From Klebsiella pneumoniae (lineage in GTDB: Bacteria; Pseudomonadota; Gammaproteobacteria; Eutrophobiales; Eutrophobiaceae): 64,000 nucleotides of DNA. The position numbers were made by a program, and so were the translations under genes. Shown here piece by piece: positions 27,172 through 49,694 of this stretch (its first letter is position 1; every line of letters starts with the position of its first letter). The notes beneath the pieces are model-generated. The model did no database searches and had not been told where the DNA came from. It worked only from the letters and a program-made list of their open reading frames with translations. Location: the NCBI GenBank assembly GCA_945870865.1, contig CAMBTO010000002.1, positions 22,535 to 86,534 on the forward strand, written 5' to 3'.

Positions 27172-27215
27172 TCACTGCTGTAATAGCAGATCACTGCTGT
27201 AATAGCAGATCAGTC
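27172..27215. repeat. tandem direct repeat of the 19-bp unit GATCACTGCTGTAATAGCA (2.3 copies), each unit containing a CTGCT-gtaat-AGCAG mini-hairpin
   Basis: Read directly from the sequence. It abuts the stop codon of the response-regulator gene. Confidence 0.8.
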
Positions 27216-28561: not shown

Positions 28562-28900
28562 ATGAATACCAATATTACCGATCGTACTTTCTGGTCAAAT
28601 GAGGGCTGGTTTCTCAATTTGCGCAAGGGTGATGAAAACGTGATGTCATTTGTGGGTAACCGACGCCTGAATATCCGCAGCGGTGATTTTGGTGTCATCG
28701 CCGGCCCATTCAATTCGCTGATACAGATGGAAAACTGGTTTACGACCTTTCAGGGCCGTCATGGCAAACCACGGGATCTGCAGATGTATCAGGGACAGGT
28801 CGGGTCCTCAATCGACATGGATAACACAGGACTTGAGCTGATGGCGGTCGAGGAGATCAGGAATCTGGCCAAGAATGTGGCAGGATTTCATTTCGGTTAA
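28562..28900 (+). CDS. hypothetical protein (112 aa)
   Basis: Good AAGGAG RBS 7 nt upstream. No recognisable family. Confidence 0.4.
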   Translation: MNTNITDRTFWSNEGWFLNLRKGDENVMSFVGNRRLNIRSGDFGVIAGPFNSLIQMENWFTTFQGRHGKPRDLQMYQGQVGSSIDMDNTGLELMAVEEIRNLAKNVAGFHFG

Positions 28901-28924: not shown

Positions 28925-29641
28925 TCAGGGCAAGTCCCGGTAGCGCAGCGATATCTCTCCGCCGCTGGTTGCCATGCTGGCGAAATAACCGGGTGCGGAG
29001 TCGATATTCATTAGCGTCCAGTCTGCCATGAGTTCGTCTTCCCAGCGCGTCACCAGCAAGCGCGGCGGCTGATACGGATCGACTGACACATCAAACTGTT
29101 TTAATCCCAGGGCGATGCCTTTGCCATGCGCCTTGACGATGGCCTCCTTGCGTGTCCACGTCGCAAAAAATGCCTGCAACCGGATCTGTTCACTACAGTC
29201 CTGAAGTGCCTCGTATTCTGCCGTCGAAAAAAAACGGCGAGCCAGCGTCTGGTAGTCGATATCTGTGCGGACCTTCTCTACGTCAATACCTATATCGTGA
29301 TCCAGCGTCAAGGCTATCATCGCGAGATCCTGCGAATGCGATACGCTGAAACGGACGCGGGTAGGGCCAGGTTGAAATTGCAGGTACGGTTTACCGTCGG
29401 GATGATTGGCAATGGTGATATGTGACAAGTCACAATCCAGCGTTTGTGCCAGTATCTGCCGGAGAGTGCTGCGTGTAATTGTAAACTCCCGCACCTTGCT
29501 GGCGGAGAGGAACTTTGCCGCGCGCTGTCTCTCCTCGTCTGACAGGTACTGTTGGCAGTCCTGTATCTCAGCCTCGGTACGCCCAAGAGGTATCCGGTAG
29601 ATATCCACACTCTCCGGTTTATACCCGGGCATGTTTATCAT
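28925..29641 (-). CDS. pfaE: Sfp-type 4'-phosphopantetheinyl transferase (PfaE-like)
   Basis: GIDVE and WTRKEAIVKAHGKG motifs. It is the last gene of the pfa/ole operon, with a 4-nt overlap with oleD. Confidence 0.8.
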   Translation of the reverse strand: MINMPGYKPESVDIYRIPLGRTEAEIQDCQQYLSDEERQRAAKFLSASKVREFTITRSTLRQILAQTLDCDLSHITIANHPDGKPYLQFQPGPTRVRFSVSHSQDLAMIALTLDHDIGIDVEKVRTDIDYQTLARRFFSTAEYEALQDCSEQIRLQAFFATWTRKEAIVKAHGKGIALGLKQFDVSVDPYQPPRLLVTRWEDELMADWTLMNIDSAPGYFASMATSGGEISLRYRDLP

Positions 29642-30633
29642 TTTGCTGCCCCGGAAAAATATTGTTCCAGTCTGTGCATGCCCTGTTCGGTACTGACATG
29701 TGGCTGATAGCCGAGGTCGCGGTGGGCGGCACTGATATTGTACCAGTGGGCACAGCTCAGTTGGCGGGCGATAAAACGCGTCATCAGTGGCTCCTGTCGG
29801 ATCTTCAGCAGACTGTATACGACCTCGGAGATCTGTCCGATTTTATAGAGTAGTCCGTCCGGCACAGTCCGGTTGATCGCAGGCATACCCGCTGCGTTCA
29901 GAATACGGTTTATGATCGCGGACATCGGCAAGGGCTCGCCGTTACTGATGAAATAGGCCTTGCCGGCACAGCTTGCGCCGACGTTCAGTTTATCCAGTGC
30001 GGCCAGATGTGCGTCCACGGCATTGTCGATATAGGTGGTATCAACAAGGCGGCGACTGCCGCGTGTCAGTCGTAGTCTGCCGGTACGGGCACGGCTGAGG
30101 ATCCTGCCGATCAGGTGCGGGTCACCCGGCCCCCAGATCAGGTGCGGTCTTAATGCCACGGTAGATAACCAGTCATTGTTTGCGGCCAGTACGCGTTGCT
30201 CGGCCATCGCCTTGGTACGCTGGTAATGATTGAGCCAGGTGGAAGGATAGGGCGCAGACTCATCGAGGTTCTCCTCATCCGAGCCGTCAAAAACGACACT
30301 GGGCGAACTGGTGTATATGAGCCGGCGGATACCGTTGGTGATACAGGCATTGATGATATTTTCCGTGCCGATGACGTTGGTCCGGTAATAGTCATCATAC
30401 TTGCCCCACACACCGGTCAGCCCGGCGATATGCATGATCACATCACAATCGCGACTGGCGTCTAACACCGTCTGGCGAACAGCCAGGTCGCCCTTGTACA
30501 AAACTACACCAGCGCGTTGCAGTTCAGGATATTCACCGCGTTGCAGGCAGCTGACTTGTAACCCGCGTTGCAGTAGTGCACGCACCACCGCACCGCCGAG
30601 GTAACCTCCACCGCCCGTGACCAACACATTCAT
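29638..30633 (-). CDS. oleD: OleD, NAD(P)H-dependent 2-alkyl-3-ketoalkanoate reductase (3beta-HSD/NAD-epimerase family)
   Basis: VLVTGGGGYLG Rossmann motif, the YxxxK region and ~330 aa. It is positioned as oleD after oleC. Confidence 0.75.
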   Translation of the reverse strand: MNVLVTGGGGYLGGAVVRALLQRGLQVSCLQRGEYPELQRAGVVLYKGDLAVRQTVLDASRDCDVIMHIAGLTGVWGKYDDYYRTNVIGTENIINACITNGIRRLIYTSSPSVVFDGSDEENLDESAPYPSTWLNHYQRTKAMAEQRVLAANNDWLSTVALRPHLIWGPGDPHLIGRILSRARTGRLRLTRGSRRLVDTTYIDNAVDAHLAALDKLNVGASCAGKAYFISNGEPLPMSAIINRILNAAGMPAINRTVPDGLLYKIGQISEVVYSLLKIRQEPLMTRFIARQLSCAHWYNISAAHRDLGYQPHVSTEQGMHRLEQYFSGAAK

Positions 30634-32276
30634 TTCTGTTTGCGGGCCCAGCGGGTCAGTTCAGCCCGGTTAATCTTTGTGTTATGACGGATGTCTACCG
30701 GAAACCCTGGATGGAAATAGATGTCACGGATTGCACGGGTATGTTCATGTTCCTTGCCGAGTTCAAGCAGTTCACGTTTGATCGCCGTGGTATTGGCCTT
30801 GCGGTGCGCCGGATCAAGCTCGACGCAAAGTGCCGGTATCACCTCAATCTTGTGTCGCCGACTGACCAACGCGGTCCGGTATACCTGAGGATGGGCATTA
30901 AACACACCTTCACAACAGGCGCTAAACCAGGTCTTGTCATACTCGACCACCCGTTCGGACTTGCGACCGCAAAACCACAAGCGGCCCAACTCATCCAGAT
31001 AACCGGTATCGCCCATGCGGTGATAAACCTTGCCGTCACCGGCAAAGATCTTCGCCTGCAGTGTGGCATCGGGTCGGTTGTAATATTTCGTGGTGACCTG
31101 CGGACCACTGACCACAATCTCGCCAATCTGCGGCGCCGCTAGCAGAGTCACCTCGTCCCAGCGTCCAATCGGTTTGTCAGTGATCGCAATGATATGGACA
31201 TCCATACCTGCAACCGGTTTGCCTACACAGATCCCCTTCCCGGCATCGGTGGCCAGCCGGGTCTGTTGCAGGAGCTCGTGGCTGCCGATCGAACTGACCG
31301 GCAGTGATTCGGTGGCACCATAGGGTGTATAAATTTGTACTGAAGGATTCAACAGCTGGCTAAAGCTCTCCAGGATCGCGGGAGCAACCGGTGCGCCGGC
31401 ACTGAGCACACGTTTTAACGAGGGCAGGCGGATATTCTTTTTGACGCCATAACGTCCGCAACGGTCCAGCAGCGCAGGAGACCCAAACATCGTCGTCGCC
31501 TGATAGCGATCGATTGCCGCAAAGATTTTTACCGGGTCCACACTGCCCGGACGGGTAAAGTCCATGTCCGGGATGATAGATGTCATACCCATCGCCGGGG
31601 CATACAACCCAAACAGCGGAAACGTCGCGAGGTCTACCTCACCCGGGCGTATGTCATACAGCTGCTGCAATGCCTGGACCTGGGCAAGAAAGTTACCGTG
31701 CGTATAGACCGCACCTTTCGGTGTGCCGGTGCTGCCGCTGGTAAACAGGATGGCCGCCATCTGGCCGGGGTCGGTCTCCACCTTGTCATTAGCCAGTTTG
31801 CGCCAGCGGTCGCGCATTAAGGAACGTAGTCGAATCAAACCTGGCAGTGGCAGAGGATCATTGCCGCTGAGTATACGGGTTTCGATACTGCCACCCGCCC
31901 AGCCGAAGATAATCCGTGCCAGATGGGCCTTGCGATTGCCGATGAATGCCTGCGGTCGAGCCTCGCCCAGACATTTTTTCAGGTGTCTCAGGCCGATACC
32001 GGGGTCCACCGCGACCAGCACCGCACCGATCCGGAACAGCGCAAACACGGTGGCAAAAAATTCAAACCCGGGGCGTTCCATCAATACGGTACGGGTCCCT
32101 GCGCGGATACCGTGCCAGGACAGGCCACTGGCAATGCGTGCGCTCGCGTCGTCCAGCTCGCGATACGAAAACTCCTGAAACCGTCCGTCCGCCTGTTGTA
32201 CTGCCAGCGCGAGGTTGTCCGGCTGTTGCTGCGCCATCTGTGCAAGATAGTCTGCAATATTGGTCGCCTGCATCAT
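30630..32276 (-). CDS. oleC: OleC, AMP-dependent synthetase/ligase (olefin beta-lactone synthetase)
   Basis: AMP-binding motifs (FTSGSTGTPKG; YGATE-like; …GDTGY…), 548 aa and position within oleABCD. Confidence 0.8.
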   Translation of the reverse strand: MMQATNIADYLAQMAQQQPDNLALAVQQADGRFQEFSYRELDDASARIASGLSWHGIRAGTRTVLMERPGFEFFATVFALFRIGAVLVAVDPGIGLRHLKKCLGEARPQAFIGNRKAHLARIIFGWAGGSIETRILSGNDPLPLPGLIRLRSLMRDRWRKLANDKVETDPGQMAAILFTSGSTGTPKGAVYTHGNFLAQVQALQQLYDIRPGEVDLATFPLFGLYAPAMGMTSIIPDMDFTRPGSVDPVKIFAAIDRYQATTMFGSPALLDRCGRYGVKKNIRLPSLKRVLSAGAPVAPAILESFSQLLNPSVQIYTPYGATESLPVSSIGSHELLQQTRLATDAGKGICVGKPVAGMDVHIIAITDKPIGRWDEVTLLAAPQIGEIVVSGPQVTTKYYNRPDATLQAKIFAGDGKVYHRMGDTGYLDELGRLWFCGRKSERVVEYDKTWFSACCEGVFNAHPQVYRTALVSRRHKIEVIPALCVELDPAHRKANTTAIKRELLELGKEHEHTRAIRDIYFHPGFPVDIRHNTKINRAELTRWARKQK

Positions 32277-33187
32277 GATTGAGCTGATTTTGATGGTGTC
32301 CCGATCCGGTGGCGTGCCAGGAAGTCTTGCACCAGTGGGACTATCTGTTCGTGCGCGTCTTCCAGCACATAATGACCGGCATCGGCAAATCGGTGTAACT
32401 CGGCAGCGGGAAAGCGTTCGGTCCAGCCATCCAGGAAATGTTCATCAAATACAAAATCACGCATGCCCCAGCAGATCAACATCGGCAGCTGGCGGAAGCG
32501 GGCGAGGCCCTCGGCGACGGCTGATACAATGTCATACCCGAGGTCGCCAGGTTGCAGCGGGATGTCCTCGACGAACCGACGCACGGCCACACGGTTGGCC
32601 CAGTTGTCATACGGGGCCAGATAGGCCGCAGCGACGTCAGCGTCCATCGGCCTGCGGGTAACGCCGTACCTGACAGCACCACGACAAAACGCATTGAAGC
32701 CTTGATTCAGCAGGGCATTCAGCAGCGGGATGCGACTCAGTTTAAGCGACAACGGTAGATGTTTGCCCGCTGGCAGATGGAATGCGGCTGTATTGAGGAT
32801 GACCAGTCGTTTGATGCGTTCCGGGTGCAGGCTGGCCCAGGCCATGCCGATCATGCCGCCCCAGTCATGCACCACCAGGGTGATATTGCCGGTGATGTCG
32901 AGCTGGTCCAGCAATGCCCCGAGGTCTTCCACCCGCCGTGCCAGCATAAACGGATATTGTGCTGCCAGTGGTTTTTCCGACAGGCCCATGCCGATATGAT
33001 CCGGGACGATGCAGCGATAGTTTCCCTTCAGCGCCAGTACCAGCCTGCGATAATAAAATGACCAGCTCGGATTGCCATGCACCATGACGATGACATCTGC
33101 ATCACGCGGGCCTTCATCCAGATAATGCAGCTTGTAGCCGCGAATATCGACGAAGTGTGAGTTGAATGGATAATCCGGATAGTGCAT
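32273..33187 (-). CDS. oleB: OleB, alpha/beta hydrolase (haloalkane-dehalogenase-like; beta-lactone decarboxylase)
   Basis: MVHGNPSWSFYYR, VVHDWGG nucleophile motif and 304 aa. It lies between oleA and oleC. Confidence 0.8.
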   Translation of the reverse strand: MHYPDYPFNSHFVDIRGYKLHYLDEGPRDADVIVMVHGNPSWSFYYRRLVLALKGNYRCIVPDHIGMGLSEKPLAAQYPFMLARRVEDLGALLDQLDITGNITLVVHDWGGMIGMAWASLHPERIKRLVILNTAAFHLPAGKHLPLSLKLSRIPLLNALLNQGFNAFCRGAVRYGVTRRPMDADVAAAYLAPYDNWANRVAVRRFVEDIPLQPGDLGYDIVSAVAEGLARFRQLPMLICWGMRDFVFDEHFLDGWTERFPAAELHRFADAGHYVLEDAHEQIVPLVQDFLARHRIGTPSKSAQS

Positions 33188-33253
33188 GGCAGACAGTGTC
33201 GATTTATGTGGAAAACAGATTTGTTCGAATCTCGGGATTCGGGACCGGCTAAC

Positions 33254-34453
33254 TTACCACTCCCAGCCGAGCATCATGCAGTTAAGGCCGCTGCCGATAC
33301 CGAGGAACCCGACCCGGTCGCCACGTTTTAGGAATTTGCGCTGATCGGCGATGGCAGCGGTCATCGGTACCGAGACGGTGCCGATATTGCCGAGGTATTT
33401 ATAGGTACTGAAATCCTTGTCTTTGGAAATCCCGAGCTCGCGTAGAATGGTTTCCTGATGTCCCGAACCGACCTGGTGACAGATGACCTTGTCGATCTCC
33501 TCGCGCGCCCAGCCCATCCGCGTCAGGAACGTGCCCCAGGTCTTTACCCCGAGCTTTACGCCGTGTTTCAGTACCGACACCGAGTCGGTCGACATGAACT
33601 GGGACAAAACCTGTGGCAGCATCTTTGAGGGTAACAGGTTGGCGACGGCGGTTGGCAGTTTCTCGCTGGTCATCAGCTCGCGCATGAACGTAGGCAGGGT
33701 CTCCGGGTTCATCACATCGTCTACCGCGTGCATCAGTTTGTCCGGTGTCAGCATCATCTTGCCGAGCTCGACCGGTGTCATCGTCACGCCCCAGCGGCAC
33801 AGCCGGTGATGTTCGGGGGCGGCCTGAGTGGCGGCACCGATTAATCTGTGAGTATTGCTGTTGCTGAATGAACCGTCGGTCAACAACACAGCGGCCGCAC
33901 CGGAACCGCCGGTCAGCGTCGCCAGTGAGGAGGAGAAGATATCCATCGTCTTTTCGCGCAGCATGCGGTTGATCATGATCTCGACGATCTCGCGTGAGGA
34001 TTCGCAGGACACAACCATACCGGCGCGGATCTGTTTCAATTCGATCCGGTTGGCGATATCAATGATCCCGTTTAATACACCAAGACAGGCATTCGAGATA
34101 TCGTAGACATAGGCATCCGGGCTGATGCCCAGTTTGGCGGCGACCGCGCAGGCGGTGGCCGGTTCGTAGTTCTCGCGGCAGACACCTGCGTAGATCAGTG
34201 TCTGGATATCGCTGGCGCGTACATTCGACTGGTTCAGCGCCTTTAAAGCGGCGGCTGTGGCACCATCCGACAGTGAGTAGCCCTGATCCCACCAGCGGCG
34301 TTCACTGATACCTGTTAATGCTTCCAGCTGACCGGGTGAGATATGCAGCGAGTCGTACATCGGTAACAGCCTGCCTTCCAGTTCTTCCGAGGTGACCACC
34401 ATCGATGGCAACTCGTAACCGATAGACTCCATATGTACGCGGCGAAATATCAT
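33254..34453 (-). CDS. oleA: OleA, FabH-like thiolase (acyl-CoA:acyl-CoA head-to-head Claisen condensing enzyme)
   Basis: FabH/OleA fold (…DISNACLGVLNGI… with catalytic Cys). ~400 aa, longer than FabH. The start overlaps the pfaC stop by 4 nt. Confidence 0.8.
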   Translation of the reverse strand: MIFRRVHMESIGYELPSMVVTSEELEGRLLPMYDSLHISPGQLEALTGISERRWWDQGYSLSDGATAAALKALNQSNVRASDIQTLIYAGVCRENYEPATACAVAAKLGISPDAYVYDISNACLGVLNGIIDIANRIELKQIRAGMVVSCESSREIVEIMINRMLREKTMDIFSSSLATLTGGSGAAAVLLTDGSFSNSNTHRLIGAATQAAPEHHRLCRWGVTMTPVELGKMMLTPDKLMHAVDDVMNPETLPTFMRELMTSEKLPTAVANLLPSKMLPQVLSQFMSTDSVSVLKHGVKLGVKTWGTFLTRMGWAREEIDKVICHQVGSGHQETILRELGISKDKDFSTYKYLGNIGTVSVPMTAAIADQRKFLKRGDRVGFLGIGSGLNCMMLGWEW

Positions 34454-37400
34454 ATGTCTGACATTCTAAGGGTAAAATCGGTCATCTGATAGATGATTCT
34501 GCCATCGACGATCAAAAACCCGTCTGCAGTCAGCAATTTGCGCGTGTCATCTACCTGTTTGACCACAGCAGATACCGTGACCTCATGGTCTTTCGGGATG
34601 ATCTGGCCGCGGTACAACCAGTGGTGTGGCTGATGCAAGGCCATCGATTCGAGGCGGGCCGTCTCGCCGCCCTGCCAGCGCTCGCACGCCACTACTTTCA
34701 GTAACTGGATAAATGATTCCAGTCCGAGAGAGCCGGGCCAGACCGGATCCTGGTAAAAATGGGCCTTGAAGAACCAGGCCTCGGGATTCACGCGGGCAGT
34801 GCCACGGATATAACCGAGTCCGTGTGGTCCACCTTCTGCATCAAAATGTTCAATCCGATCGATCATGCGCATTTGATCAGCCGGGTAGGGCGCCTGTTGT
34901 GGGTAAGCGAACTGCCGCGCACGAGAGACCTCTGTAGCGGTCGGCTGATAGGGCATGACATCGCGGATACCGACCTGATTGGTGAGCGCCTGTCTGGAGA
35001 AGAATCCAAAGTAGGTATCACCCTTATAGACTGTCCCGGCATTGCAGAGGACTTCATAATCATAATTCTGGATGATCATGCCGCCAGACAAGGCCACGTT
35101 GGTCATCTTCACCCGGATCGTCAGCATGCCGGTGTCGGCAGTGACCGGCAGTGTCTGTACCGCCTTGCCACCGAGGTTGCGGAATGACAGATCGGTCTCG
35201 CTGGTCAGGGCCGAGCCGAGATAAGCGGCCATCCAGCCGCAGGGCTGCAAGGCGATCTCAAGTAACACGGAGAAGGGCATGCCTTGTTGCCGGTTCGCAC
35301 CAAAGTACCAGGCGTCTACAGGCACATCGTATTCACCTTCAATGACAGCACCCGCCTTTAATTGCCAGGGTTCGCAGTGATTGATGGAGACGATACGATC
35401 CAGAAACTGGAACGGCGGGCCGGGCAGGCGGGCGATAATCCGATCGTGATCAAACGGCAGGTAACGATCACCAAACGCCTCGGATGGCTTGCCGGTCGCA
35501 AAGGCGAGTATGGAGTTGTAATCATACAGTACGGTCTTGACAGGTGAAGGCGCGGTATTACCGCGTTGTTGCCAGAGTGTCTGCAACTGGTCGCGATGCA
35601 GACCGGTCAGCTGCACCGACATATTGCTCATCTGCACGATCGCGCGACCATCGGCGTACATCAGTGCATCGGCGATCACATACGGTGTGCCGTTAGCCTG
35701 ATAGCCGATTTCCTTCAGTGTAATCTCGTACTGTACCTTGCTGGTCGAGGCGATCACCTGACCACGGCATTTTAATTTGCTGTTGATGCCCGCTACCGGT
35801 TCATAAACAACGGCGGATGCCTCACCAACCCAACCCATGCGCAACAGATAGATGCGCAGTGTGTGCAGGCAACATTCGTACATCAGGGTACCGGGCATCA
35901 CCTGATCATCTATAAAGTGGCAGGTGAGGAACCAGTCGTCCGGATGGATATCCGCCTCACCGGTGATGCGACCGATCCCGTAGCGGCCGGCGCCCGGATC
36001 CAGTTCGAGCACGCGGTGCACCAGTGTCATCCGACCGCCGGGCAGACCGACCGCGTGTTGCAGGGCCAGTCCGGTAAACTGTGGACCAAACGCGGTGACC
36101 AGGTCGCCGCTGCGCAGTGCCTCAATCTGTGTATCGGTGTATGACTCGGTTTGCATGCCTACCAGTGGCTGCCAGTCCGGTGTACGCACGCCATCGGCAG
36201 GACGGCGTTCAAATTCGGTCAGCACGATACCCTTGCCCGCATCGAGTTCAGCCTGGCTGAAAAAACCGGCACAACCGTTCCGCATCGACAGCAGCGGTTT
36301 GCCATTGACCGTACCTTCAAAGCTGAAGCGGAACAGATGGGTGTCACCCTGCCGGAAGAAGCGCTCGATACGAATGTCATAATGGATCGTCTGTCCGGGA
36401 CCCGGCAATGCATCGTGGAAGCTGATCTCGGCGTCAAGCAGGCGGTAGACCGCGAGGCCTTTGGTAATCTGATCGATACCGAGATAACCGGACAGGAACA
36501 GATCGGCCTGGCCTGACTCGACCGCAATACAGGTCGGGATACGCCCGCCATCCAGATACCAGGCACCCGGATGGATATCATGTTCGGTGGTGACGCGGCC
36601 ACTGCCCATCGAGCATGGCTCACCTTCTATCATCAGAATACGATCAACCAGCATCAACGGTTCGTCCGGCAGACGGACCCGTGTGGGGTAACTGTCGATT
36701 GGTGCAAACTGCGGCCCCAGTAGCTTGCCTATTGCTCCGCGCGCGAACTCCAGACACTGCATACGATCCAGCGCAGGCCGTGTCGGCACAACGCTGGCGG
36801 GTTTGGTCGGGTGCAACGTTGTCACAGTCAGTTCAGTTACCTGTGTCGGCATATTCTGTAGCAGCGCCATTTGTAGCGACAAGGCATTGCTGAGTGTATG
36901 GGTGATACCGTTGGCGACCCGCAGATACGTCTCGTGTGCCTGTGCCATCGCCGATTCGGAGCAGGCAATCTGCTCTATTAATGTCTGTGCCGGTGTATAC
37001 GTTGTCAGCCGGGTCGGGTGTGTCAGTACCCGCGCCGTCACGGTTTCTGTCTGCGGTTTTTGTGCAGGTACTCGCGGCAGGCGAATGTCGATGGGGGCAT
37101 GGCCAACCTTGACGCTGATCTGAGGCACCTTCGCCTCGGCCTGTCGGAGACTCGCGGTGTACAGGCTGTCGAGTTGCAGCGGTACCCGGTGTGTGTTCAG
37201 CAGTGCGAGTGTACGCAACACCGAGGCGACACCGTTTTTACCGTTGACGCACACTGCCTGTGCCAGATGCGGCCTGTCCTGCAGGATGCGATCAATCATA
37301 CGGGTACACGAGCCACCGGGCCCCATCTCGATAAACAGGCGTACACCGTCATCAAAGGCCGAGTTGATCACCCGTGTGTAATCAAACGGTTGTAGCGCCT

Positions 37401-41262: not shown

Positions 41263-41303
41263 GCAAATACCTGTAATGACATGATGAGGTTGTATCTTTC
41301 CAC

Positions 41304-44300
41304 TCAGGCCTGAGATTCGGTTTCCAGCTGGTTACGTCTGAATGCCTCATTCAGCGATGCATCAATCACACACTCGTAACCTTCAATTCGTGCGACCAGC
41401 TTGCCCTTCATGTCGACAAATTCAATCGAGGCCTTCGCCTCATGTTTACCCATCGACTCGACCAGCAGATTGATCAACGTGCCGTCTTTCGGAAACTGTC
41501 TCCGGTACTGGCGATATTTGCCGAGGCGGGTTGGCAACGAGCCGTACCCGGTCCGTTCAAAACACCAGAGGATCATTAACTGGAATGCCGAATCCAGCGC
41601 CAGCGGGTCGGCCAGCCAACCGGTGCGTATCGCTTGTTTCATCCACGCCGACGGGTTTGGTGCAGGACGGACACGCGCCGAGATTCCGCGATCACTGTAA
41701 CCGGTGATCGCCTCAATGCCGTGCAGATCCTTGCCGTGGAACAGACGTCCGGATGAATACAGTTCCGCATCGTTTATCGAATAGGTGCCGATGATGACCG
41801 GATTGCCCGCGGCAGGGACAGGGACAGCATCCGTGCCAAGCACGATGTTCGCGCCCGCATGCAGCAGCTTGCCCTGGCGCAGTTCGACCGGGATACGGTG
41901 GATGCCGGCAGACTCGACCGCATTACCGGCGAGGATCTGCAACTCGGCTCGCGCACCCGACTCCAGGATCACACCCTTGTAGATGGCCAGATTATCGATA
42001 CCGTTGAAGTTCAGCCCCGGTTGATCATGCATGGCGCCGTGGGCCAGCCATTCGGCGATTAATGCGGTGGGCAGTACCGCCTTGTCATTCATCACATGCG
42101 ATTTAAGTACCGGCAGATCATTCAGACTGACGGTCCGTTCAAACGTGACGATCATATTATTTGTAACAGACGATTTCGCTACCTTGCCGGAATAATCCGG
42201 CGTGTCTGTCTGCACCGGCGCACTGCCGAGTACGACCAGTTCAACCGGACCCGGTGTGGCGATTTCCTGCAGCAGGTATTCAGCCCCGGCACGTAGCGGG
42301 ATCACACCGACGCCTTCGCCTTCAAAGACCTTCTTCAATCCGGCGGTGACCATGCCACCGTCCCACGGGCCCCAGTTCAAACTGAGCACACGACACGACG
42401 GCCGCAGGTGCTGTTGTTGCTGTGCGGACTTGTTCAGTACTTCATTGGCGGCGGCATAATCGATCTGGCCCTTGCGTCCAAACCTGGCGGTCGAGGACGA
42501 AAACAGTACCAGCAGTTTCAGATCGTCCTGTTGGGTTGCCTCCAGCAGCGACTGCAAGCCGTCCACCTTGGTCGAACAGACCTCGGCAAACTGTGCACGG
42601 GTCTTGTCTTCGATGCGCCGATCCGCGAGTACGCCTGCACCGTGGATAATCCCGCGTATCGGGCCGAGCTCTTCACGGGCCTGTGCCAGCGCCTTGTTTA
42701 CCTCAGCCGGATGACGTATGTCGACGGACTGGTATGTTGCCCGCACGCCACTGGCGCGGACGCGTTCGAGGGTCTGGGCTATCTCACGCGCGGCCATCAG
42801 TTCACGATAACGTGACTCGACCTGTTTTGGATTCGGTCGGTCGGTGCTCTGGGTAACGATGGCACGTTTTATAGTGGCCTCATCAGTCAGGCCTGACAAC
42901 CAGTCGGGCTGTGGTGCAGGTTGCGGACTGCGACCGAGTAATAACAGGTTCGTCTGCATGCGGGTTGCGAGTTCAACCGCGATCGCGGCGGTGATCCCAC
43001 GTGCGCCGCCGCTGATGACGACCACATCACCGCGACCGACCGTGGCCGTTACTGGTGTGTGGGTGTCGAGTGCCACGGGTGTCAGTGTCAGCGTGCTGCA
43101 CTGTCCATCCCGTAGTCCGGTTTCCAGTGGTCCCTCGTGTAACAACTCGTCTACCAGACTGTCGGCCAGTGCTGTTGCCCTGTAGTCTGTGTCGATAACC
43201 CGGCAGCGGACCTGCGACCATTCCTTGTCGGCGGTCTTGATCAGGCCGGCCAGTCCGCCCGCCAGCGGCGAGGCATCGGTGTGGTGTGTCAGCGCAAAAC
43301 GGCCACCGAGGCCGGTGACACCGGCCAGCAGCACAACTTGCGCGGCGGCGGTCTGTTTTAACGCGGGGCCGTAGTGGCGGATTAATTCAAATACCTCTGC
43401 CAGAAAATCCGGGTGCGGCTGTGCCGGTGTAACGATGACCAGACCGGCCACTGCGTCCGTTCGTCGTTCGTGTATACCGATCACGCTGGCGTTATACCCA
43501 CGTGCCTGAAATGCATTACATATTGCGGTGGACAACCCGTCACCGGAATCGGTCACATGGAGGATAGCTTGCGCAGGCAGATCCAGTGGATTGCGATTGC
43601 TGGCAGGCTCCAGCGGTGTGACTGACAAGACACCGCGCCACAGTGTATTCGGCTGTACCGTGCGCAGCCTGGTCTCTACCGGTTGCACCGCAGTAGCCGG
43701 TGCGACAGTATTGCCCTGATGCATGTAGTCCACTATCTGTTGCAGTGTCTGCAAGGTGGCCATGTGTTCCGGATTGACCGTGGGTGCGTCCGGCATGCGT
43801 TCCTGGAATGCAGAGAGGATCTCGACGCGCTTGATCGAATCTATACCAAGGTCAGTATCGAGATTCATATCAAGCCGCAGCATATCGACCGGGTAACCGG
43901 TCTTGTCGGCGACCACGTCCAGCAATGCCTGATCAAATACCGGTGTTGCAGTGCCTGGTTTAGTTGTCACTGCTAATGCGACGCTTGCGTCTCCAGCACC
44001 ACCCCGGGTCTGCATATAATCCACGATCTGTTGCAGTGTCTGTAATGCGGCCATGTCTTCCGGATTCACCGTCGGTGCTTCAGGCATACGCTCCTGGAAC
44101 GCAGACAGGATCTCGACGCGTTTGATCGAATCAATACCAAGGTCGGTATCCAGATTCATATCGAGTCGCAGCATATCAACCGTGTAACCGGTCTTCTCCG
44201 CAACTACCTCAAGCAAGGCCTGGTTCAGGCTGGCGTCTGCGATGACAGTGACGACGGGTGTCATCATGCTGGCCGGGGTACTGTGAGTTTCGGCATCGTC

Positions 44301-47300
44301 GGCCAGATATTCAATAATATTTTTCAGCAACCTGAACGTGCCAAGGTCCTCTGGCTGGATCTTGCGAATGCCGGGCAGCCGCTCCTGCAGGCCGGAGAGG
44401 ATCTCGACGCGTTTGATCGAATCGATTCCGAGGTCGGTATCCAGACTCATCTCTATGCTGAGCATCTCGACCGGATAACCGGTCTTCTCGGCGATGACCT
44501 GCAATAAAATCGTTTCCAGTTTTCCGGTGCTTGCTGCCGGGGCAGAGACGACCGGCGCTGTGACAACCGGGGCAGGTGTGGTGATGACCGGCGTTGTTGC
44601 TGTTCTGACAGTGGGTGCCGCGGGTAGTGTCGTTTGCACTGGCGCAATAAGCAGCGGGCTGATCGGTATGCCGGTCAATAATAGTTGCTGCTGTTCCAGT
44701 AGACGCTGGATTGAAAGCTGTGCCGCCTGCTGGCCTTCCAGATAACGGCGATGTAACTCGGCGGTCTGCTCCTGCATCTGTTGCAATGCGAGTATGCTTT
44801 GTTGTGTGGTAGCCAGTAGTTGCTGTGCCTGCGGAGCATCAGTGCCGGTGGGCAGTGTGATCGCGACGGTTTGCGCAGCGGGTGTTGTGGCTACGCCGGG
44901 TCGCGCTGGTGTTGCGGTAGTGCTGGCCGGTGTGGTCGGTGTGATCTGCATACGGGCAGGTTCCTGTCTGGTTTTTTGCGGTTGCGGGCGCGGCTTCACA
45001 TAGTTGGCGCCCGTCAGAGTGATTGTCATCGCCGGTTTTTTGGTGGAGGCCGCAGGCAGCTGTGTCAGCCACTGGGCGTCCCACAGACTGATACGGCAGC
45101 CGTGTCCGAGTGCGGCAAGCCGCGCGAGTGTGCAGGCGAGATCATATTGCCCGCCCTGTTTGCCCTTTGATGCATCCAGCGTGATGCTCGTGTGATCACG
45201 ATCACCCAGGATGGATCGGACCAGCCCGGTCAGTGTGTTGCCAGGGCCGGTCTCTACGAAGGTGCGGATACCCTTCGCATACATGTTTTCTATCTGGGTG
45301 ACAAACTCGACCGGTTGCGCGAGCTGGCGCGCCAGCAACTGCCGTACCGCCGCCTCGGCCTGCGGGTAACACTCGGCTGTCGTGTTTGCATAGACCGGGA
45401 GCTTGCCCTTGTGGAAGCGGACCGATTGCATAAACTGTGCGAACGGTTTTTCCGCTGCGCTGACAAAGCTGCTGTGGAACGCAGCGGAGACGGTCAAAAC
45501 CTTTGCGCTCAGCCCGCGTTTCTTCAGCACCTCGGCGGCACGTCGGATCTGATCGGTGGCACCGGACAGGACCACCTGTCGTGGCGCATTGTTGTTCGCA
45601 ATGATCAGATCCAGCTGCTCTGCCTCCAGAATTTCGTGGATGACCGCCGCAGAGGCAGACGCAGCCAGCATGGAGCCATGATCACCCTCACTCATATTCA
45701 TCAGTTCACCACGCTTGATCGCAAGCCGGTGCAGACTGTCACTATCGATACGACCGGCGGCGCACAGCGCGGTCAATTCACCAAAACTGTGACCGGCAGT
45801 CGCCTCGGCCTCAACACCAAAATAGTCGAGCAGGCGCAGCGCACCCAGACTGACGGCACCGATCGCCGGTTGGGCATACTGGGTTGCACGCAAGGCCTCG
45901 GCCTGTGCCGTCCGCGCCTCGTCGTTAAACACCGGTATTGGATAGATGCGTTTGCCCAGTGATTCGCCGCCATTCATCTCGCTGAATATCTGATCGGCCT
46001 CGGCCAGCGCTGACTGTATCAGCGGAAACTGGCAGGCCAGATCGAGCAGCATGTCCGGGTACTGTGAACCCTGACCGGGGAACAGCATCGCCAGTTTGCC
46101 TGTCGGTTTGCCTGTACCAAACCAGGCACCTTCTGGCAGGCTCCACTGGTTCAGATCCTGGTTCTGTAACATCTGGCGCGTGTCATTGAACAGTTTGTCC
46201 AGGCCACTCTTCGGTGTGATCACGAATAACAGGCGGCAGGGGTCGGCGCTGTTAAATTGTTGCAGACTGCGTGCCGCCTGCGTGCGCAGTAAGTCCCAGT
46301 CCTGTTTCAGATCGATTGCATTTAATTTACCGAGCAGCGACTGACGGTTATCCGCAGACAGTCCGAGTACTAGCACCTTGCCGTCCCAGTCGATCTCCGT
46401 GGTGGCCGTCGGTGCTTCCTCCAGCACACAATGGAAATTGCTGCCACCGAAGCCAAACGCACTGATCGCGCCACGGCGCGGGTGGGCGGGTGAGCCGATC
46501 CACGGACGTTTCAGCGTATTTACATAGACCGGTGCGGTGCCGGGGTTCAGGATCTCAAGTGGCTGGGCGACCTTGATTGTGGGGGGCAAGACCTTGTGTT
46601 TCAACGCCATCGCCACCTTGATCAGTCCGGCCACACCGGCCGCGGCCTTGGTATGGCCGATCATCGATTTGACCGAACCGATGGCACACCAGCTGCCTTC
46701 CGCTTGCGCCTCACGATAAACCGAAGACAGTGCCTCGGCCTCGACCGCATCGCCGACGCGTGTACCGGTGCCGTGTGCCTCGACCAGTTCGATAGTGGCA
46801 GGCGAGACGCCAGCCTCACGGTAGGCATTTTTCAGCGCGCGGGTCTGACCATTCGCACTGGGTGCGTAGATCGCATTGCCACGGCCGTCGCTCGATGAGC
46901 CTATGCCACGCAGTACGGCATAAATATTGTCGCCATCGCGCTCGGCATCGGCGAGCCGCTTCAGGACAATCGCGCCGAGGCCCTCACCGAGGATGGTGCC
47001 GTCACCGTTGCTGTCGAACGGTTTGCTGTTACCGGTCGGTGACAGTGCCGGTGTCTTGCTGAAACACATGTACATGAAGATATCGTTAAACGTATCAAAG
47101 CCACCGGTGATCGCCATGTCAGAGCGGCCCGAATACAATTCAAGCGCGGCCAGGTGGATCGCACTGAGCGAACTGGCACAGGCGGCGTCAACGACGCAGT
47201 TGGTGCCACCGAGGTCAAAGCGGTTGGCGATCCGGCCAGCGGCCACATTGCCGAGCAGACCGGGGAACGAGTTTTCCTGCCAGGGCACATAACCGGCGGA

Positions 47301-47852
47301 GATACGTTCGACCACCTCTTCTGCAACAGTCTGATCGACCCCGGCATCGGCCAGCGCCTTGCGCCAGATCGGGTGACCGAGTCTGGCACCGAGCGGGATG
47401 ACCAGCTCCAGCGTACCGGTCACGCCGAGGATGACGCTGGTGCGGTTGCGATCAAACGGTTTACCATCATTGCTGTCACGGCCGGTTGCATAACCAGCAT
47501 CAAGCAGGGCCTGACGGGCGACGACCATGCCGAGCAACTGGGTCGTGTCGGTCGCTTCAATATTTTTCGGACTAAGGCCATACAACAGCGGGTCAAAATC
47601 GACCGGGTTGATAAAGCCGCCGCGCCGCGCATAGGTCATATCGGGCGCGTGTTTGTCTGCATTGAAATAATCGTCCGGGTTCCAGTGGGTCGGTGGCACC
47701 TCGGTGATCGCATCCACACCATCGCGGATATTGGTCCAGTACGTCTGCGGGTCGCTCGCGCCGGGGAACAGGCAGCCGATGCCGACAATCGCCAGTGGTA
47801 CGGCAGTGGCGGTGGTATGGTCTTCCGGTAAGGCGTCAGGCTTCTTGGTCAC
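41304..47852 (-). CDS. pfaA: PUFA-synthase subunit PfaA-like: KS - AT - [Pro/Thr/Ala/Gln-rich linker] - 3x ACP - KR - DH (2182 aa)
   Basis: KS motif VDAACASSLSAIH (Cys codon ~47183). AT motifs FPGQGSQ and GHSFGE (Ser ~45788). Three tandem ACPs each carry DTDLGIDSIKRVEIL. The KR has VVISGGARGITAAIA and the PKS DH has HVMNDKAVLP. Confidence 0.85.
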   Translation of the reverse strand: MTKKPDALPEDHTTATAVPLAIVGIGCLFPGASDPQTYWTNIRDGVDAITEVPPTHWNPDDYFNADKHAPDMTYARRGGFINPVDFDPLLYGLSPKNIEATDTTQLLGMVVARQALLDAGYATGRDSNDGKPFDRNRTSVILGVTGTLELVIPLGARLGHPIWRKALADAGVDQTVAEEVVERISAGYVPWQENSFPGLLGNVAAGRIANRFDLGGTNCVVDAACASSLSAIHLAALELYSGRSDMAITGGFDTFNDIFMYMCFSKTPALSPTGNSKPFDSNGDGTILGEGLGAIVLKRLADAERDGDNIYAVLRGIGSSSDGRGNAIYAPSANGQTRALKNAYREAGVSPATIELVEAHGTGTRVGDAVEAEALSSVYREAQAEGSWCAIGSVKSMIGHTKAAAGVAGLIKVAMALKHKVLPPTIKVAQPLEILNPGTAPVYVNTLKRPWIGSPAHPRRGAISAFGFGGSNFHCVLEEAPTATTEIDWDGKVLVLGLSADNRQSLLGKLNAIDLKQDWDLLRTQAARSLQQFNSADPCRLLFVITPKSGLDKLFNDTRQMLQNQDLNQWSLPEGAWFGTGKPTGKLAMLFPGQGSQYPDMLLDLACQFPLIQSALAEADQIFSEMNGGESLGKRIYPIPVFNDEARTAQAEALRATQYAQPAIGAVSLGALRLLDYFGVEAEATAGHSFGELTALCAAGRIDSDSLHRLAIKRGELMNMSEGDHGSMLAASASAAVIHEILEAEQLDLIIANNNAPRQVVLSGATDQIRRAAEVLKKRGLSAKVLTVSAAFHSSFVSAAEKPFAQFMQSVRFHKGKLPVYANTTAECYPQAEAAVRQLLARQLAQPVEFVTQIENMYAKGIRTFVETGPGNTLTGLVRSILGDRDHTSITLDASKGKQGGQYDLACTLARLAALGHGCRISLWDAQWLTQLPAASTKKPAMTITLTGANYVKPRPQPQKTRQEPARMQITPTTPASTTATPARPGVATTPAAQTVAITLPTGTDAPQAQQLLATTQQSILALQQMQEQTAELHRRYLEGQQAAQLSIQRLLEQQQLLLTGIPISPLLIAPVQTTLPAAPTVRTATTPVITTPAPVVTAPVVSAPAASTGKLETILLQVIAEKTGYPVEMLSIEMSLDTDLGIDSIKRVEILSGLQERLPGIRKIQPEDLGTFRLLKNIIEYLADDAETHSTPASMMTPVVTVIADASLNQALLEVVAEKTGYTVDMLRLDMNLDTDLGIDSIKRVEILSAFQERMPEAPTVNPEDMAALQTLQQIVDYMQTRGGAGDASVALAVTTKPGTATPVFDQALLDVVADKTGYPVDMLRLDMNLDTDLGIDSIKRVEILSAFQERMPDAPTVNPEHMATLQTLQQIVDYMHQGNTVAPATAVQPVETRLRTVQPNTLWRGVLSVTPLEPASNRNPLDLPAQAILHVTDSGDGLSTAICNAFQARGYNASVIGIHERRTDAVAGLVIVTPAQPHPDFLAEVFELIRHYGPALKQTAAAQVVLLAGVTGLGGRFALTHHTDASPLAGGLAGLIKTADKEWSQVRCRVIDTDYRATALADSLVDELLHEGPLETGLRDGQCSTLTLTPVALDTHTPVTATVGRGDVVVISGGARGITAAIAVELATRMQTNLLLLGRSPQPAPQPDWLSGLTDEATIKRAIVTQSTDRPNPKQVESRYRELMAAREIAQTLERVRASGVRATYQSVDIRHPAEVNKALAQAREELGPIRGIIHGAGVLADRRIEDKTRAQFAEVCSTKVDGLQSLLEATQQDDLKLLVLFSSSTARFGRKGQIDYAAANEVLNKSAQQQQHLRPSCRVLSLNWGPWDGGMVTAGLKKVFEGEGVGVIPLRAGAEYLLQEIATPGPVELVVLGSAPVQTDTPDYSGKVAKSSVTNNMIVTFERTVSLNDLPVLKSHVMNDKAVLPTALIAEWLAHGAMHDQPGLNFNGIDNLAIYKGVILESGARAELQILAGNAVESAGIHRIPVELRQGKLLHAGANIVLGTDAVPVPAAGNPVIIGTYSINDAELYSSGRLFHGKDLHGIEAITGYSDRGISARVRPAPNPSAWMKQAIRTGWLADPLALDSAFQLMILWCFERTGYGSLPTRLGKYRQYRRQFPKDGTLINLLVESMGKHEAKASIEFVDMKGKLVARIEGYECVIDASLNEAFRRNQLETESQA
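43700..44519. repeat. three tandem ~290-bp near-identical DNA repeats encoding the ACP domains of pfaA
   Basis: Repeated blocks GATCTCGACGCG(C/T)TTGATCGAATC…CAAGGTC(A/G)GTATC…CATATC(A/G)A…CAGCATATC(G/A)ACCG(G/T)GTAACCGGTCTT have their Ser codons at ~43838, ~44129 and ~44423. Confidence 0.8.
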
Positions 47853-49522
47853 GATAGATATCTCATGATGGCGGAGGATTCGAGCGGTTTTACAGCAACG
47901 GATGCCGTGGCGCGTACGCCTTGCATCCGCAGTTGATTAATACGGGTGAAGAGTGCAGCGCCGTACATCAGGTTCAGTGCGACATTGGCCACGTTACGGT
48001 TGGCCGGTTGTTCGAGCGCGGTGCCACGGGTCCATTCATTGAATGCACCCATCGCCGGCCCGCACCAGATTTGATAGTCGATCTGGCGTTCAGTAACACC
48101 GGCATTGGCCCAGCGCGATGACAGCCCCAGGTACCAGCGGAACAGCAGCGCCATTTTATGTTTCGGCTCCTTGTCGGCGCGTGCAATCTCGGCTGGATTA
48201 CGTTCATTGAAAAATTCACGGGTCTGTTGCCAGATGGTCTCGATCGACGCCTTGAAGATCGTCTTTTCCAGCGACTCACGTTCTGCCTGCGGGATCTGTT
48301 CGATGGAGCCATAGGCGCGATACAGCTCGTACAACTTGTTGCTGCGCATCGGAAACATGGTGCCGCGTTTCAGCACCTGCAATTTTACGCCCATCTCGAA
48401 CATATCAACCGCTGGCGCCATCGCCACGTCGGCCTGATCGGCGGTGGCGAGCATTTGCCTGACCAGATCGCTGCTGCCCGATTCGATGCAGGCCTGGTTA
48501 ACGCTGCCGGTGACGATATACGCCGCGCCGATTGCAAACGCGGCGGCGGCCGTAGCCGGGGTCGCAATGCCACCGGCCGCACCAACACGCAGTGGCTGGG
48601 CATAGTTATATTGTGCCTGCAATTTATCGCGTAGTTCGAGCATCGTCGGTAACAACGTCAGCGCGGGGCGATTGTCGGTATGACCACCGGAGTCGGCCTC
48701 GACGGTCAGGTCTTGTGCCATCGGGATCTGTGTGGCGAGTTCGGCCTGTTCAGTAGTGATGATGCCCTGTGCCAGCAGTTCGTTGACAAACTTTGCCGGT
48801 GGCGGACTGAACCAGCGTGTTGCGACCTCCTGGCGTGAGGCCTTCGCGATGATCCGGTTTGGTATAACGATCGTGCCCTGTGCATCGCGGTGAATGCCAT
48901 GCAGGCGGTAGCGCACTACCTGCAATGTCAGCGCCATATAGGCGGAGGCCTCGACCAGGCGGATGCCGTGGCGCAGGTACACATCAACGACGGCCTTTTC
49001 CTGGCCCTTCTCATTCGGACTATGGATCAGGTTCGCGCAAAACGGTGTATCACCGAGTGCGGCTTTTAATTCGAGTATGGCCGCCTCGATCTGATTAACC
49101 ATCAAACCGGCCGCACCAAACGAGCCGAGCATACCCGCTTGCGCTATTGCCCTGACCAACCGTGTTGAGGCGATACCGTTCGCCATCGCACCGGTCATAT
49201 AAGGCAGGCGGATGCCGTGATCACGGCAGAAGCTCACATCACCCAGATCAGTGATGCGTAGCGGCGGTATCCAGGCGTTTAAGGGGTAATCGCCGGTCTG
49301 TGAAGTTCCGAGCGTGGCGTGGCCGCTGTTGCTGTAAATCTCAATGCCATTCTGATCGATGACATAGAGCGATTTATCGATCGCCGCAATTGCCCCGGCC
49401 AGTGTGGTTTGACCAGCAGATTTGTCTGACGCGTCAGCCGTCCACCCGCCGAGCCGAGTCGACCGGAAAGCGTGAGTGGGGATCTGATCAAACGCAGCGG
49501 GGGCGTTTGTTTGCATGTTCAC
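47849..49522 (-). CDS. pfaD: PfaD-like trans-enoyl reductase (2-nitropropane-dioxygenase-like FMN enzyme)
   Basis: …YMTGAMANGIAS…GAAGL… is typical of the PfaD ER. It is the first gene of the operon, with a GTG or ATG start at 49522/49516 preceded by AAGGA, and a 4-nt overlap with pfaA. Confidence 0.8.
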   Translation of the reverse strand: MNMQTNAPAAFDQIPTHAFRSTRLGGWTADASDKSAGQTTLAGAIAAIDKSLYVIDQNGIEIYSNSGHATLGTSQTGDYPLNAWIPPLRITDLGDVSFCRDHGIRLPYMTGAMANGIASTRLVRAIAQAGMLGSFGAAGLMVNQIEAAILELKAALGDTPFCANLIHSPNEKGQEKAVVDVYLRHGIRLVEASAYMALTLQVVRYRLHGIHRDAQGTIVIPNRIIAKASRQEVATRWFSPPPAKFVNELLAQGIITTEQAELATQIPMAQDLTVEADSGGHTDNRPALTLLPTMLELRDKLQAQYNYAQPLRVGAAGGIATPATAAAAFAIGAAYIVTGSVNQACIESGSSDLVRQMLATADQADVAMAPAVDMFEMGVKLQVLKRGTMFPMRSNKLYELYRAYGSIEQIPQAERESLEKTIFKASIETIWQQTREFFNERNPAEIARADKEPKHKMALLFRWYLGLSSRWANAGVTERQIDYQIWCGPAMGAFNEWTRGTALEQPANRNVANVALNLMYGAALFTRINQLRMQGVRATASVAVKPLESSAIMRYLS

Positions 49523-49605
49523 AATGGGTTGTCCTTGAGAAACTTGTTAACCGTATGTGCGTTGCGATGCAGCATGCCATACGTGGACAGGCAAGTATAA
49601 GCTGA

Positions 49606-49625
49606 AAAGCGCCTGTTTTACAGGC
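49606..49625 (-). terminator. candidate weak terminator downstream of ptsP / upstream of pfa operon
   Basis: On the minus strand: GCCTGT-aaa-ACAGGC followed by GCUUUUC. Confidence 0.35.
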
Positions 49626-49694
49626 TCCACGGGTGGATAAATCCGTGTTTTTTGTGGATTTTTTGGGTGGTCGGTGCGGGAGGGAGTAAAGGCC

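Follow-up and report, generated by a model that had tools for sequence, protein, structure and literature searches.

The closest described counterpart of the genes discussed here lies in Geobacter bemidjiensis, a maker of the C31:9 hydrocarbon hentriacontanonaene, in which pfaD-A-B-C-oleA-B-C-D-pfaE stand in tandem (Yoshida et al. 2016, PMC4882568); the C31:9 product was shown by Sukovich et al. 2010, in so far as that work is cited in PMC4882568. Type I pfa clusters, which are defined by a pfaBC fusion, have been described in Geobacter, Desulfuromonas, Pelobacter and Gemmata, and they are often linked to ole genes, their product is listed as uncharacterized and their proposed role is the supply of olefin precursors (Shulse & Allen 2011, PMC3098273). 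With regard to how the two systems meet, pfaA-E plus oleA suffice for formation of a 31:8 ketone in E. coli, and because an active-site-dead OleA still lowers eicosapentaenoic acid (EPA) about 10-fold, Allemann et al. 2019 (PMC6463001) conclude that OleA draws 16:4n-3 directly from the acyl carrier proteins (ACPs) of PfaA; in the same study, PfaT is a non-essential accessory editing thioesterase. Here we analyze a 64,000-nucleotide stretch of DNA (the window) deposited as Klebsiella pneumoniae (GCA_945870865.1, contig CAMBTO010000002.1, positions 22,535 to 86,534 of the forward strand), in which eight consecutive minus-strand open reading frames (ORFs) at 28925-49522, spanning 20.6 kb, form a cluster of this already described kind: a Type I Pfa synthase, oleABCD and a 4'-phosphopantetheinyl transferase (PPTase), that is, the Geobacter cassette, ordinary but real. 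From its gene content we predict, with a probability of about 0.75, that the cluster makes a polyunsaturated hydrocarbon of the C31:9 type.

Organization of the cluster

According to the ORF listing of the window, the genes run in the order pfaD-pfaA-pfaBC-oleA-oleB-oleC-oleD-pfaE, all on the minus strand. The synthase part comprises pfaD (47849-49522, 557 aa), coding for the trans-acting enoyl reductase (ER), pfaA (41304-47852, 2182 aa; KS-MAT-3xACP-KR-PS-DH) and a pfaBC fusion (34450-41262, 2270 aa; KS-CLF-AT-DH-DH), where KS, MAT, KR, CLF, AT and DH denote ketosynthase, malonyl-type acyltransferase, ketoreductase, chain-length factor, acyltransferase and dehydratase domains. The olefin part follows contiguously and in canonical order, with oleA (33254-34453, 399 aa) for a thiolase-fold head-to-head Claisen condensing enzyme, oleB (32273-33187, 304 aa) for a haloalkane-dehalogenase-like alpha/beta hydrolase (beta-lactone decarboxylase), oleC (30630-32276, 548 aa) for an AMP-dependent olefin beta-lactone synthetase and oleD (29638-30633, 331 aa) for an NAD(P)H-dependent 2-alkyl-3-oxoalkanoate reductase; pfaE (28925-29641, 238 aa), for an Sfp/HetI-type PPTase, closes the series. 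An earlier note on this DNA, made from the letters alone, had described the same eight collinear genes, and its coordinates and domain content agree with the ORF listing and with Pfam and NCBIfam. This organism is also represented by public assemblies at ENA (ERZ27280192, ERZ27280257) and Logan (ERR3719152, ERR3719150); OleA is identical in them, and their independent gene calls return identical lengths from pfaA to the PPTase (2182, 2270, 399, 304, 548, 331 and 238 aa), the flank compared stopping short of pfaD.

The genes are tightly packed. Stop and start codons overlap by 4 nt at five of the seven junctions, as GTGA at pfaD/pfaA and as ATGA at pfaC/oleA, oleB/oleC, oleC/oleD and oleD/pfaE, while the remaining two are gapped, by 41 nt at pfaA/pfaC and by 66 nt at oleA/oleB. 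The earlier note had both gap sizes right and overcounted the overlaps, giving six of seven. A 20.6-kb run of eight related collinear genes that recurs in 48 other genomes is far beyond chance. The GC content is ~58% in the cluster vs ~53-56% in its flanks; horizontal transfer was considered on this basis and set aside, the difference being too small for any conclusion.

The Pfa synthase and its PPTase

Family assignments were made with Pfam and NCBIfam profile searches, and scores were read against the curated cut-offs. PfaD matches TIGR02814 (pfaD_fam) with 652.9 bits vs a cut-off of 449 and carries the Pfam domains NMO and FabD_helical_ins. Its match to TIGR02814 begins at residue 89, so that aa 1-88 (window 49259-49522) form an N-terminal extension; the ORF begins with GTG and has an ATG two codons on, and the true start is uncertain and may be downstream. 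PfaA scores 1627 bits against TIGR02813 (omega_3_PfaA; cut-off 1010), and its catalytic motifs are intact, with Cys226 in the KS, GHSFGE in the MAT and an LGIDSI motif in each of three tandem ACPs, whose DSI serines lie at about 1144, 1241 and 1338. The linker from the MAT to the first ACP (aa about 960-1150; window 44400-44980) is ~190 aa long and rich in Pro, Ala and Thr, and it includes a Gln/Leu-rich stretch that resembles a coiled coil (…QQSILALQQMQEQTAELHRRYLEGQQAAQLSIQRLLEQQQLLL…).

In the third protein the Pfam order is ketoacyl-synt, a second ketoacyl-synt, Acyl_transf_1, FabA and FabA. The active KS has Cys190, the second KS-like domain lacks the Cys motif and corresponds to the CLF, and the FabA-like dehydratases retain His1782 and His2168. 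The AT motif GYSLGE at aa 1119-1124 keeps both the catalytic Ser and the adjoining Tyr. A Tyr beside the catalytic Ser is the signature of PfaB long-chain acyltransferases, malonyl transferases having His at this position (Lofeudo et al. 2026, PMC12895367), and because GYSLGE carries this Tyr we assign the ORF as a pfaBC fusion. PfaE contains the Pfam domains ACPS and AASDHPPT_N, both above their cut-offs, and a WTRKEAIVK motif. The window thus has the Type I features of a PfaA with tandem ACPs, a PfaD-family ER at the 5' end, a pfaBC fusion and an Sfp-type PPTase.

The Ole proteins

OleA is assigned by NF006720/PRK09258 (477 bits vs a cut-off of 285), and its top matches in the PDB are the Xanthomonas campestris OleA structures 3ROW/3S21 (E 3e-54). 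Cys123, Glu97, His326 and Asn356 align with Cys143, Glu117, His285 and Asn315 of the X. campestris enzyme. Several close homologues are titled 'acyl-CoA:acyl-CoA alkyltransferase' by JGI, which is an annotation and not a test. OleB belongs to Pfam Abhydrolase_1, has haloalkane-dehalogenase (HLD)-like hydrolases as its best PDB matches and places its predicted nucleophile at Asp108 within HDWGG; among the matches listed, 11 of 120 close homologues bear the JGI name 'cis-3-alkyl-4-acyloxetan-2-one decarboxylase', again an annotation and not a test.

For OleC the top specific models are those of olefin beta-lactone synthetase (E 1e-190), the broader PRK09274 is passed with 707 vs 478 bits, and the TSGSTGTPK motif of the P-loop lies at aa 179. 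OleD falls within Pfam 3Beta_HSD, and its best equivalog reaches E 1e-132, the next-best family, HpnA, attaining only 138 bits; it shows the N-terminal GGGGYLG (GxxGxxG) and, at aa 137, YQRTK (YxxxK). PDB sequence searches with OleC and OleD returned no olefin-pathway structures, just generic acyl-CoA ligases and short-chain dehydrogenases/reductases (SDRs). The family searches did not resolve the four ole ORFs into a generic FabH, dehalogenase, ligase and epimerase, an outcome that the earlier note had raised. Its identification of the Pfa and OleABCD proteins is borne out by the family models, the catalytic residues, the annotations of close homologues and the synteny in 48 genomes described below.

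Conservation of the cluster in other genomes

A scan of species-representative genomes with OleA yielded 48 loci, and all eight proteins were run against these loci by tblastn. The order pfaA-pfaC-oleA-oleB-oleC-oleD-pfaE is kept wherever the contig is long enough, in nearly all of the 48 species genomes. Forty-five of the loci are metagenome-assembled genomes (MAGs) with the 399-aa OleA form, most of them labelled Gammaproteobacteria, and many sit on sequences of 1.7-2.8 Mb, either chromosomes or large contigs. In the nearest locus (L001; CAMDWI010000001.1), OleA is 97% identical to that of the window. One of the MAG loci is that of Candidatus Eutrophobius brisbanensis, which has been assigned to the GTDB order UBA4486 (PMC11758582), an order whose members have been reported from North Sea blooms as plankton associated with methylotrophy (PMC8371827). 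Because its neighbours among the relatives point there, the window, like most of the relatives, probably belongs to UBA4486, a group of uncultured planktonic Gammaproteobacteria. Seven of the MAG contigs (L001, L008, L011, L018, L022, L034 and L047) are titled 'Klebsiella pneumoniae', 'uncultured Enterobacteriaceae', 'Gemmatimonadota' or 'Planctomycetota' yet their OleA is of the gammaproteobacterial 399-aa form (74-97% identity), which suggests mislabelled or mis-binned records.

Three loci belong to other phyla: two MAGs, one of Tepidisphaerales and one of Limisphaerales, and a planctomycete in culture, Paludisphaera soli JC670. The Ole proteins of these three stand in the same order and show 50-59% identity to those of the window, and the window cluster shows 44-61% identity and synteny to the planctomycete and verrucomicrobial clusters. 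In Paludisphaera soli, oleA-D are present and the flank examined contained no pfaE match; the Tepidisphaerales MAG is a short contig that reaches only oleB. The earlier note had called the linked arrangement uncommon, a view that does not survive, as it is widespread (48 genomes) and already known from Shulse & Allen (PMC3098273) as a Type I cluster with ole genes.

This conservation bears on whether the synthase and the Ole enzymes belong together at all. It could be imagined that OleABCD use chains from type II fatty acid synthesis (FAS II), as in Xanthomonas and Micrococcus, and that the product of the Pfa-like synthase next to them is a secondary lipid unrelated to the olefin; the nearest solved structure is that of X. 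campestris OleA, which does use FAS-derived acyl-CoA, and the products of Type I synthases are listed as uncharacterized (PMC3098273). Such coincidental adjacency is, however, highly improbable: the pfa-ole neighbourhood is kept in 47 genomes of three phyla, pfaC and oleA overlap by 4 nt in the window, the PPTase, needed only by PfaA, sits after oleD, and Shewanella pfa mutants lose the hydrocarbon, OleA in that organism using only Pfa-derived chains (PMC6463001).

Junctions and transcription

The relatives reveal a marked unevenness among the junctions. The pfaC/oleA gap has a median of 9 nt, measures <=30 nt in 40 of 47 loci and is overlapping or abutting in 18, and the distal junctions are also tight (oleC/oleD: median -4 nt, overlapping in 33 of 36; oleD/pfaE: median -1 nt, <=30 nt in 27 of 33). 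The loosest junction is oleA/oleB, with a median of 91 nt; among 43 relatives, 10 have a gap longer than 300 nt here (L004, L007, L009, L010, L012, L013, L015, L017, L019 and L041). All six of the oleA/oleB gaps that were translated, including those of L004, L007, L009, L012 and L017, contain a same-strand dinB (DNA polymerase IV, 368 aa), which stands by itself or is accompanied by an uncharacterized ORF or, in L012 and L017, by small ORFs resembling addiction modules, and the gaps of L010, L013, L015, L019 and L041 are near-identical in length to the dinB-bearing ones. Interruptions elsewhere involve a restriction-modification system (L016) or a putative transposase (L035) between oleB and oleC, and a HicAB-like pair between pfaC and oleA (L044). 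No pfaT-like thioesterase or CoA ligase was found in the interrupting gaps of the related loci examined.

The junction pattern fits two modules, [pfaD-A-BC-oleA] and [oleBCD-pfaE], and agrees with OleA working on the synthase and OleBCD downstream of it. OleBCD reportedly act as a complex, apart from OleA. At the level of expression, two modules would mean that pfaD-pfaA-pfaBC-oleA are translationally coupled and that oleB-oleC-oleD-pfaE have their own promoter, in the 66-nt gap or inside oleA, with unchanged biochemistry. The looseness of oleA/oleB in relatives, the unrelated genes that fill the long gaps examined and the interruption of oleB/oleC in two loci speak for such an arrangement, which is possible for the window itself but doubtful: the gap here is only 66 nt and contains no match to a terminator or to a minus-strand promoter, the cluster as a whole yields such matches at the level of shuffled sequence, and dinB in the relatives lies on the same strand, so that read-through is possible.

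Transcription signals add little. Consensus scans found no promoter or terminator match in either intergenic gap (41 nt and 66 nt) and no sigma-70 consensus match in the 172-nt ptsP-pfaD intergenic region (49523-49694, minus strand), which we presume to be the promoter region, and over the flanks and the cluster such matches were no more frequent than in shuffled sequence. Because the scans are uninformative, it is spacing and strand that the single-operon reading draws on, and on these grounds a single operon of all eight genes, as put forward in the earlier note, is plausible, with the reservation that foreign genes split oleA from oleB in 10 of 43 relatives. The ptsP-pfaD region also holds, on the plus strand at 49628-49647, a hairpin that resembles a terminator, with a T-run after it; no plus-strand gene enters it, and this one match compares with a chance expectation of 0.6 in shuffles. 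Rfam and tRNA scans found nothing inside the cluster.

Proposed pathway and alternative products

In the pathway that we propose, PfaE would phosphopantetheinylate the three ACPs of PfaA, whereupon PfaA, PfaBC and PfaD would iteratively build a methylene-interrupted cis-polyenoyl-ACP (16:4n-3 in the studied systems). OleA would then dock on the PfaA ACPs and condense two chains head-to-head to a 2-alkyl-3-keto acid, which OleD would reduce; OleC would close the reduced product to a beta-lactone using ATP, and OleB would decarboxylate the lactone to a cis-olefin, the C31:9-type polyene that we infer as the product. Neither a release thioesterase nor a CoA ligase would be needed. That a Pfa synthase feeds OleABCD to give a polyunsaturated long-chain olefin was the central proposal of the earlier note, and it gains support from the protein identities, the synteny and the G. 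bemidjiensis precedent with its measured C31:9.

The note had further remarked that no thioesterase or acyl-CoA handling gene is evident in the operon, and indeed no thioesterase (pfaT-like, hot-dog) or acyl-CoA ligase gene was found in the cluster or in the 37 flanking ORFs scanned (main ORFs of at least 120 aa plus one of 112 aa). As OleA was concluded to take the chain directly from the ACPs and PfaT proved dispensable (PMC6463001), this absence is expected, not puzzling. Of the two routes offered for the hand-off, direct transfer from ACP to OleA has the backing of the Shewanella work (PMC6463001), and a double duty of OleC is unlikely because the best family matches of OleC are olefin beta-lactone synthetases.

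Several observations weigh against the proposed pathway. Three proteins stay below the curated equivalog cut-offs: OleC against the olefin beta-lactone synthetase models NF045785 (632 bits, cut-off 850) and NF045786 (612, cut-off 900), OleD against the 2-alkyl-3-oxoalkanoate reductase models NF042423 and NF042422 (439 and 426 bits vs 580) and PfaE against NF042922 HetI (161 bits vs 370). OleB scores 144-164 bits against HLD-family models, in each case below the cut-off, and has no OleB-specific model; aa 1029-1367 of PfaBC reach 121.7 bits against TIGR02816 (pfaB_fam), short of its cut-off of 144. Owing to its insertion (see below), the OleA of the window is no plain copy of the studied OleAs. 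The likeness to Geobacter is one of gene order taken from the literature, not of sequence alignment, and chain length and double-bond number are unreadable from sequence. Finally, the PfaB-type AT, which is retained and appears to be active, could instead release a polyunsaturated fatty acid (PUFA), either free or bound to lipid. Despite the sub-cut-off scores, we read OleC as a divergent orthologue.

The scores invite the question of whether the cluster ends in an olefin. A beta-lactone or a ketone natural product could be the end product, and the OleB-like protein could have another function, given that OleB was assigned by its gene context, by source annotations and by an HLD-like fold that is generic, and that OleC and OleD lie below their equivalog cut-offs. 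We find this hardly credible in view of the presence of all four ole genes in canonical order, the nucleophile Asp of OleB, the oxetanone decarboxylase names given by JGI to many close OleB homologues and the olefin made by Geobacter with the same cassette.

The AT raises the main rival to a dedicated olefin pathway. As in Shewanella, the synthase might mainly make a long-chain PUFA (similar to EPA or docosahexaenoic acid, DHA) for membranes via the PfaB-type AT, with OleA siphoning off an intermediate and the olefin as a side product. The catalytic Ser and PfaB-specific Tyr of GYSLGE are kept in the fused domain, PfaB has been described as the terminal acyltransferase for long chains, which determines the final PUFA (PMC12895367), and a single synthase gives both products in Shewanella (PMC6463001). 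Yet the scanned ORFs in and near the cluster include no AGPAT/PlsC-type domain, pfaT or lipid-incorporation gene, oleA directly follows pfaC in 40 of 47 genomes, Type I synthases are listed with an uncharacterized product and are proposed only as suppliers of olefin precursors (PMC3098273), and C31:9 is the only product cited for G. bemidjiensis. We therefore regard dual output as unlikely; a two-promoter organization would be compatible with either chemistry.

A lineage-specific insertion in OleA

Residues 224-286 of OleA (window 33596-33784, minus strand, from the OleA alignments) have no counterpart in X. campestris OleA (338 aa), and in the PRK09258 profile the 399 aa of the protein map onto 338 positions, with the insertion unmatched. 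Measured against X. campestris it is about 63 aa long, and against the planctomycete and verrucomicrobial enzymes 53 aa, the three Planctomycetota/Verrucomicrobiota (PVC) OleAs lacking about 53 of its residues. The insertion is present at constant length in 44 of 44 gammaproteobacterial relatives, among which conservation is 0.73 within it vs 0.88 in the OleA core. Its 63 residues include 10 Leu, 8 Met, 7 Pro and 7 Thr and form short amphipathic stretches.

Among representatives drawn from 1.84 billion proteins clustered at 50% identity, nearly all full-length OleA-like sequences measure 335-370 aa and align in two pieces split at the insertion site. The distant representative P0242 (403 aa) has a different, unrelated insertion at the same site, which tolerates lineage-specific additions. 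OleA was modelled with AlphaFold2 from an alignment of 30 sequences, and the model has a mean predicted local distance difference test (pLDDT) score of 56.8, with the insertion below 50 and hence unplaced. As to its role, one may guess at docking to the ACPs or at a lid that covers the acyl channels.

Genomic surroundings

The genes upstream of the cluster, which share its strand, are ptsP (with GAF and PEP-utilising enzyme domains), one for a hexapeptide transferase, and valS. Downstream are genes for a MEKHLA-domain protein (25914-26570, plus strand), an OmpR-type response regulator (27210-27914, minus strand) and an SCPU (spore-coat-protein-U-like) protein (27924-28412, plus strand). An OmpR-type response regulator also occurs near the cluster in L001 and L046, and because its distance differs among the window, L001 and L046, a linkage to the cluster is doubtful. 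A 112-aa plus-strand ORF (28562-28900) without a Pfam match converges with pfaE, 24 nt from the pfaE stop, and is also called as a gene in public assemblies (L049, L050, 15554-15892). Elsewhere the window contains chromosomal genes of an ordinary kind, such as those for a TRAP transporter and TonB-dependent receptors, pepA, lptF/G, pcnB, folK and tRNA-Glu (anticodon CTC; 61467-61542, minus strand), the last being the only RNA gene found in the window by ARAGORN and Rfam.

Discussion

Our findings leave the mechanism of the pathway as it is understood. What is new is the lineage of the host, the wide distribution of the cluster, the pattern of its junctions, tight at pfaC-oleA and loose at oleA-oleB, and the insertion in OleA. 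The known Pfa-Ole cassette now reaches beyond planctomycetes and the anaerobic relatives of Geobacter into a broad set of uncultured planktonic Gammaproteobacteria, which is relevant to the question of which organisms produce polyunsaturated long-chain hydrocarbons in lakes and oceans and matters for biomarkers and for cold and oxidative-stress biology. The contrast between a tight pfaC-oleA junction and an often-split oleA-oleB junction provides genomic support for the model of direct hand-off from ACP to OleA. As a more tentative proposal, small-genome planktonic Gammaproteobacteria of lakes, estuaries and oceans, probably of UBA4486, might be a widespread and unrecognised source of C31:9-type hydrocarbon in oxic waters, with the OleA insertion adapted to dock the Pfa ACPs or to shield the polyunsaturated chain. 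Such a source in oxic waters, if real, would overturn the reported tie of Type I clusters to obligate anaerobes.

Of the systems compared, Xanthomonas campestris shares only the olefin part with the window: the OleA fold, its four catalytic residues and the oleABCD order are the same, whereas Xanthomonas has no Pfa synthase, uses FAS II-derived acyl-CoA and has a 338-aa OleA without the insertion. Photobacterium profundum SS9, like the window, has its pfa and ole genes side by side, but there they form two operons, with Type A gene order and with the hot-dog thioesterase gene pfaT(orf6) between them; in the window the pfaBC stop overlaps the oleA start and a thioesterase was not found in the ORFs scanned.

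The chemistry expected for the window is that of Shewanella oneidensis and S. pealeana, in which OleA condenses a Pfa-made polyunsaturated chain and OleBCD carry it on to a 31:9 hydrocarbon; Shewanella OleA takes the chain from an ACP and, like the enzyme of the window, has its catalytic Cys at position 123. The genetic layout differs. Shewanella has a Type A pfaEABCD cluster with the order pfaA-B-C-D, a separate pfaB, 4-6 ACPs and pfaT, its oleABCD are unlinked, and EPA is also made, whereas in the window the pfa and ole genes are linked, the AT is fused, the ACPs number three and pfaT was not found in the scanned ORFs. The canonical Type A/B pfaABCDE of Shewanella, Photobacterium and Moritella was thus ruled out as a classification by the fused AT, the ER in first position, the three ACPs and the lack of a hot-dog thioesterase among the ORFs scanned in the window.

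The closest match is Geobacter bemidjiensis, which by published gene order has the same eight functions in the same order, with the ER first and the PPTase last, and the same pfaBC fusion. The two differ in their hosts, an obligately anaerobic deltaproteobacterium vs an uncultured, probably aerobic planktonic gammaproteobacterium, and the window departs from the Geobacter and planctomycete setting in the 53-63-aa insertion of its OleA. Geobacter bemidjiensis is also the only cited case with a measured product, and that product, C31:9, is the one predicted for the window.

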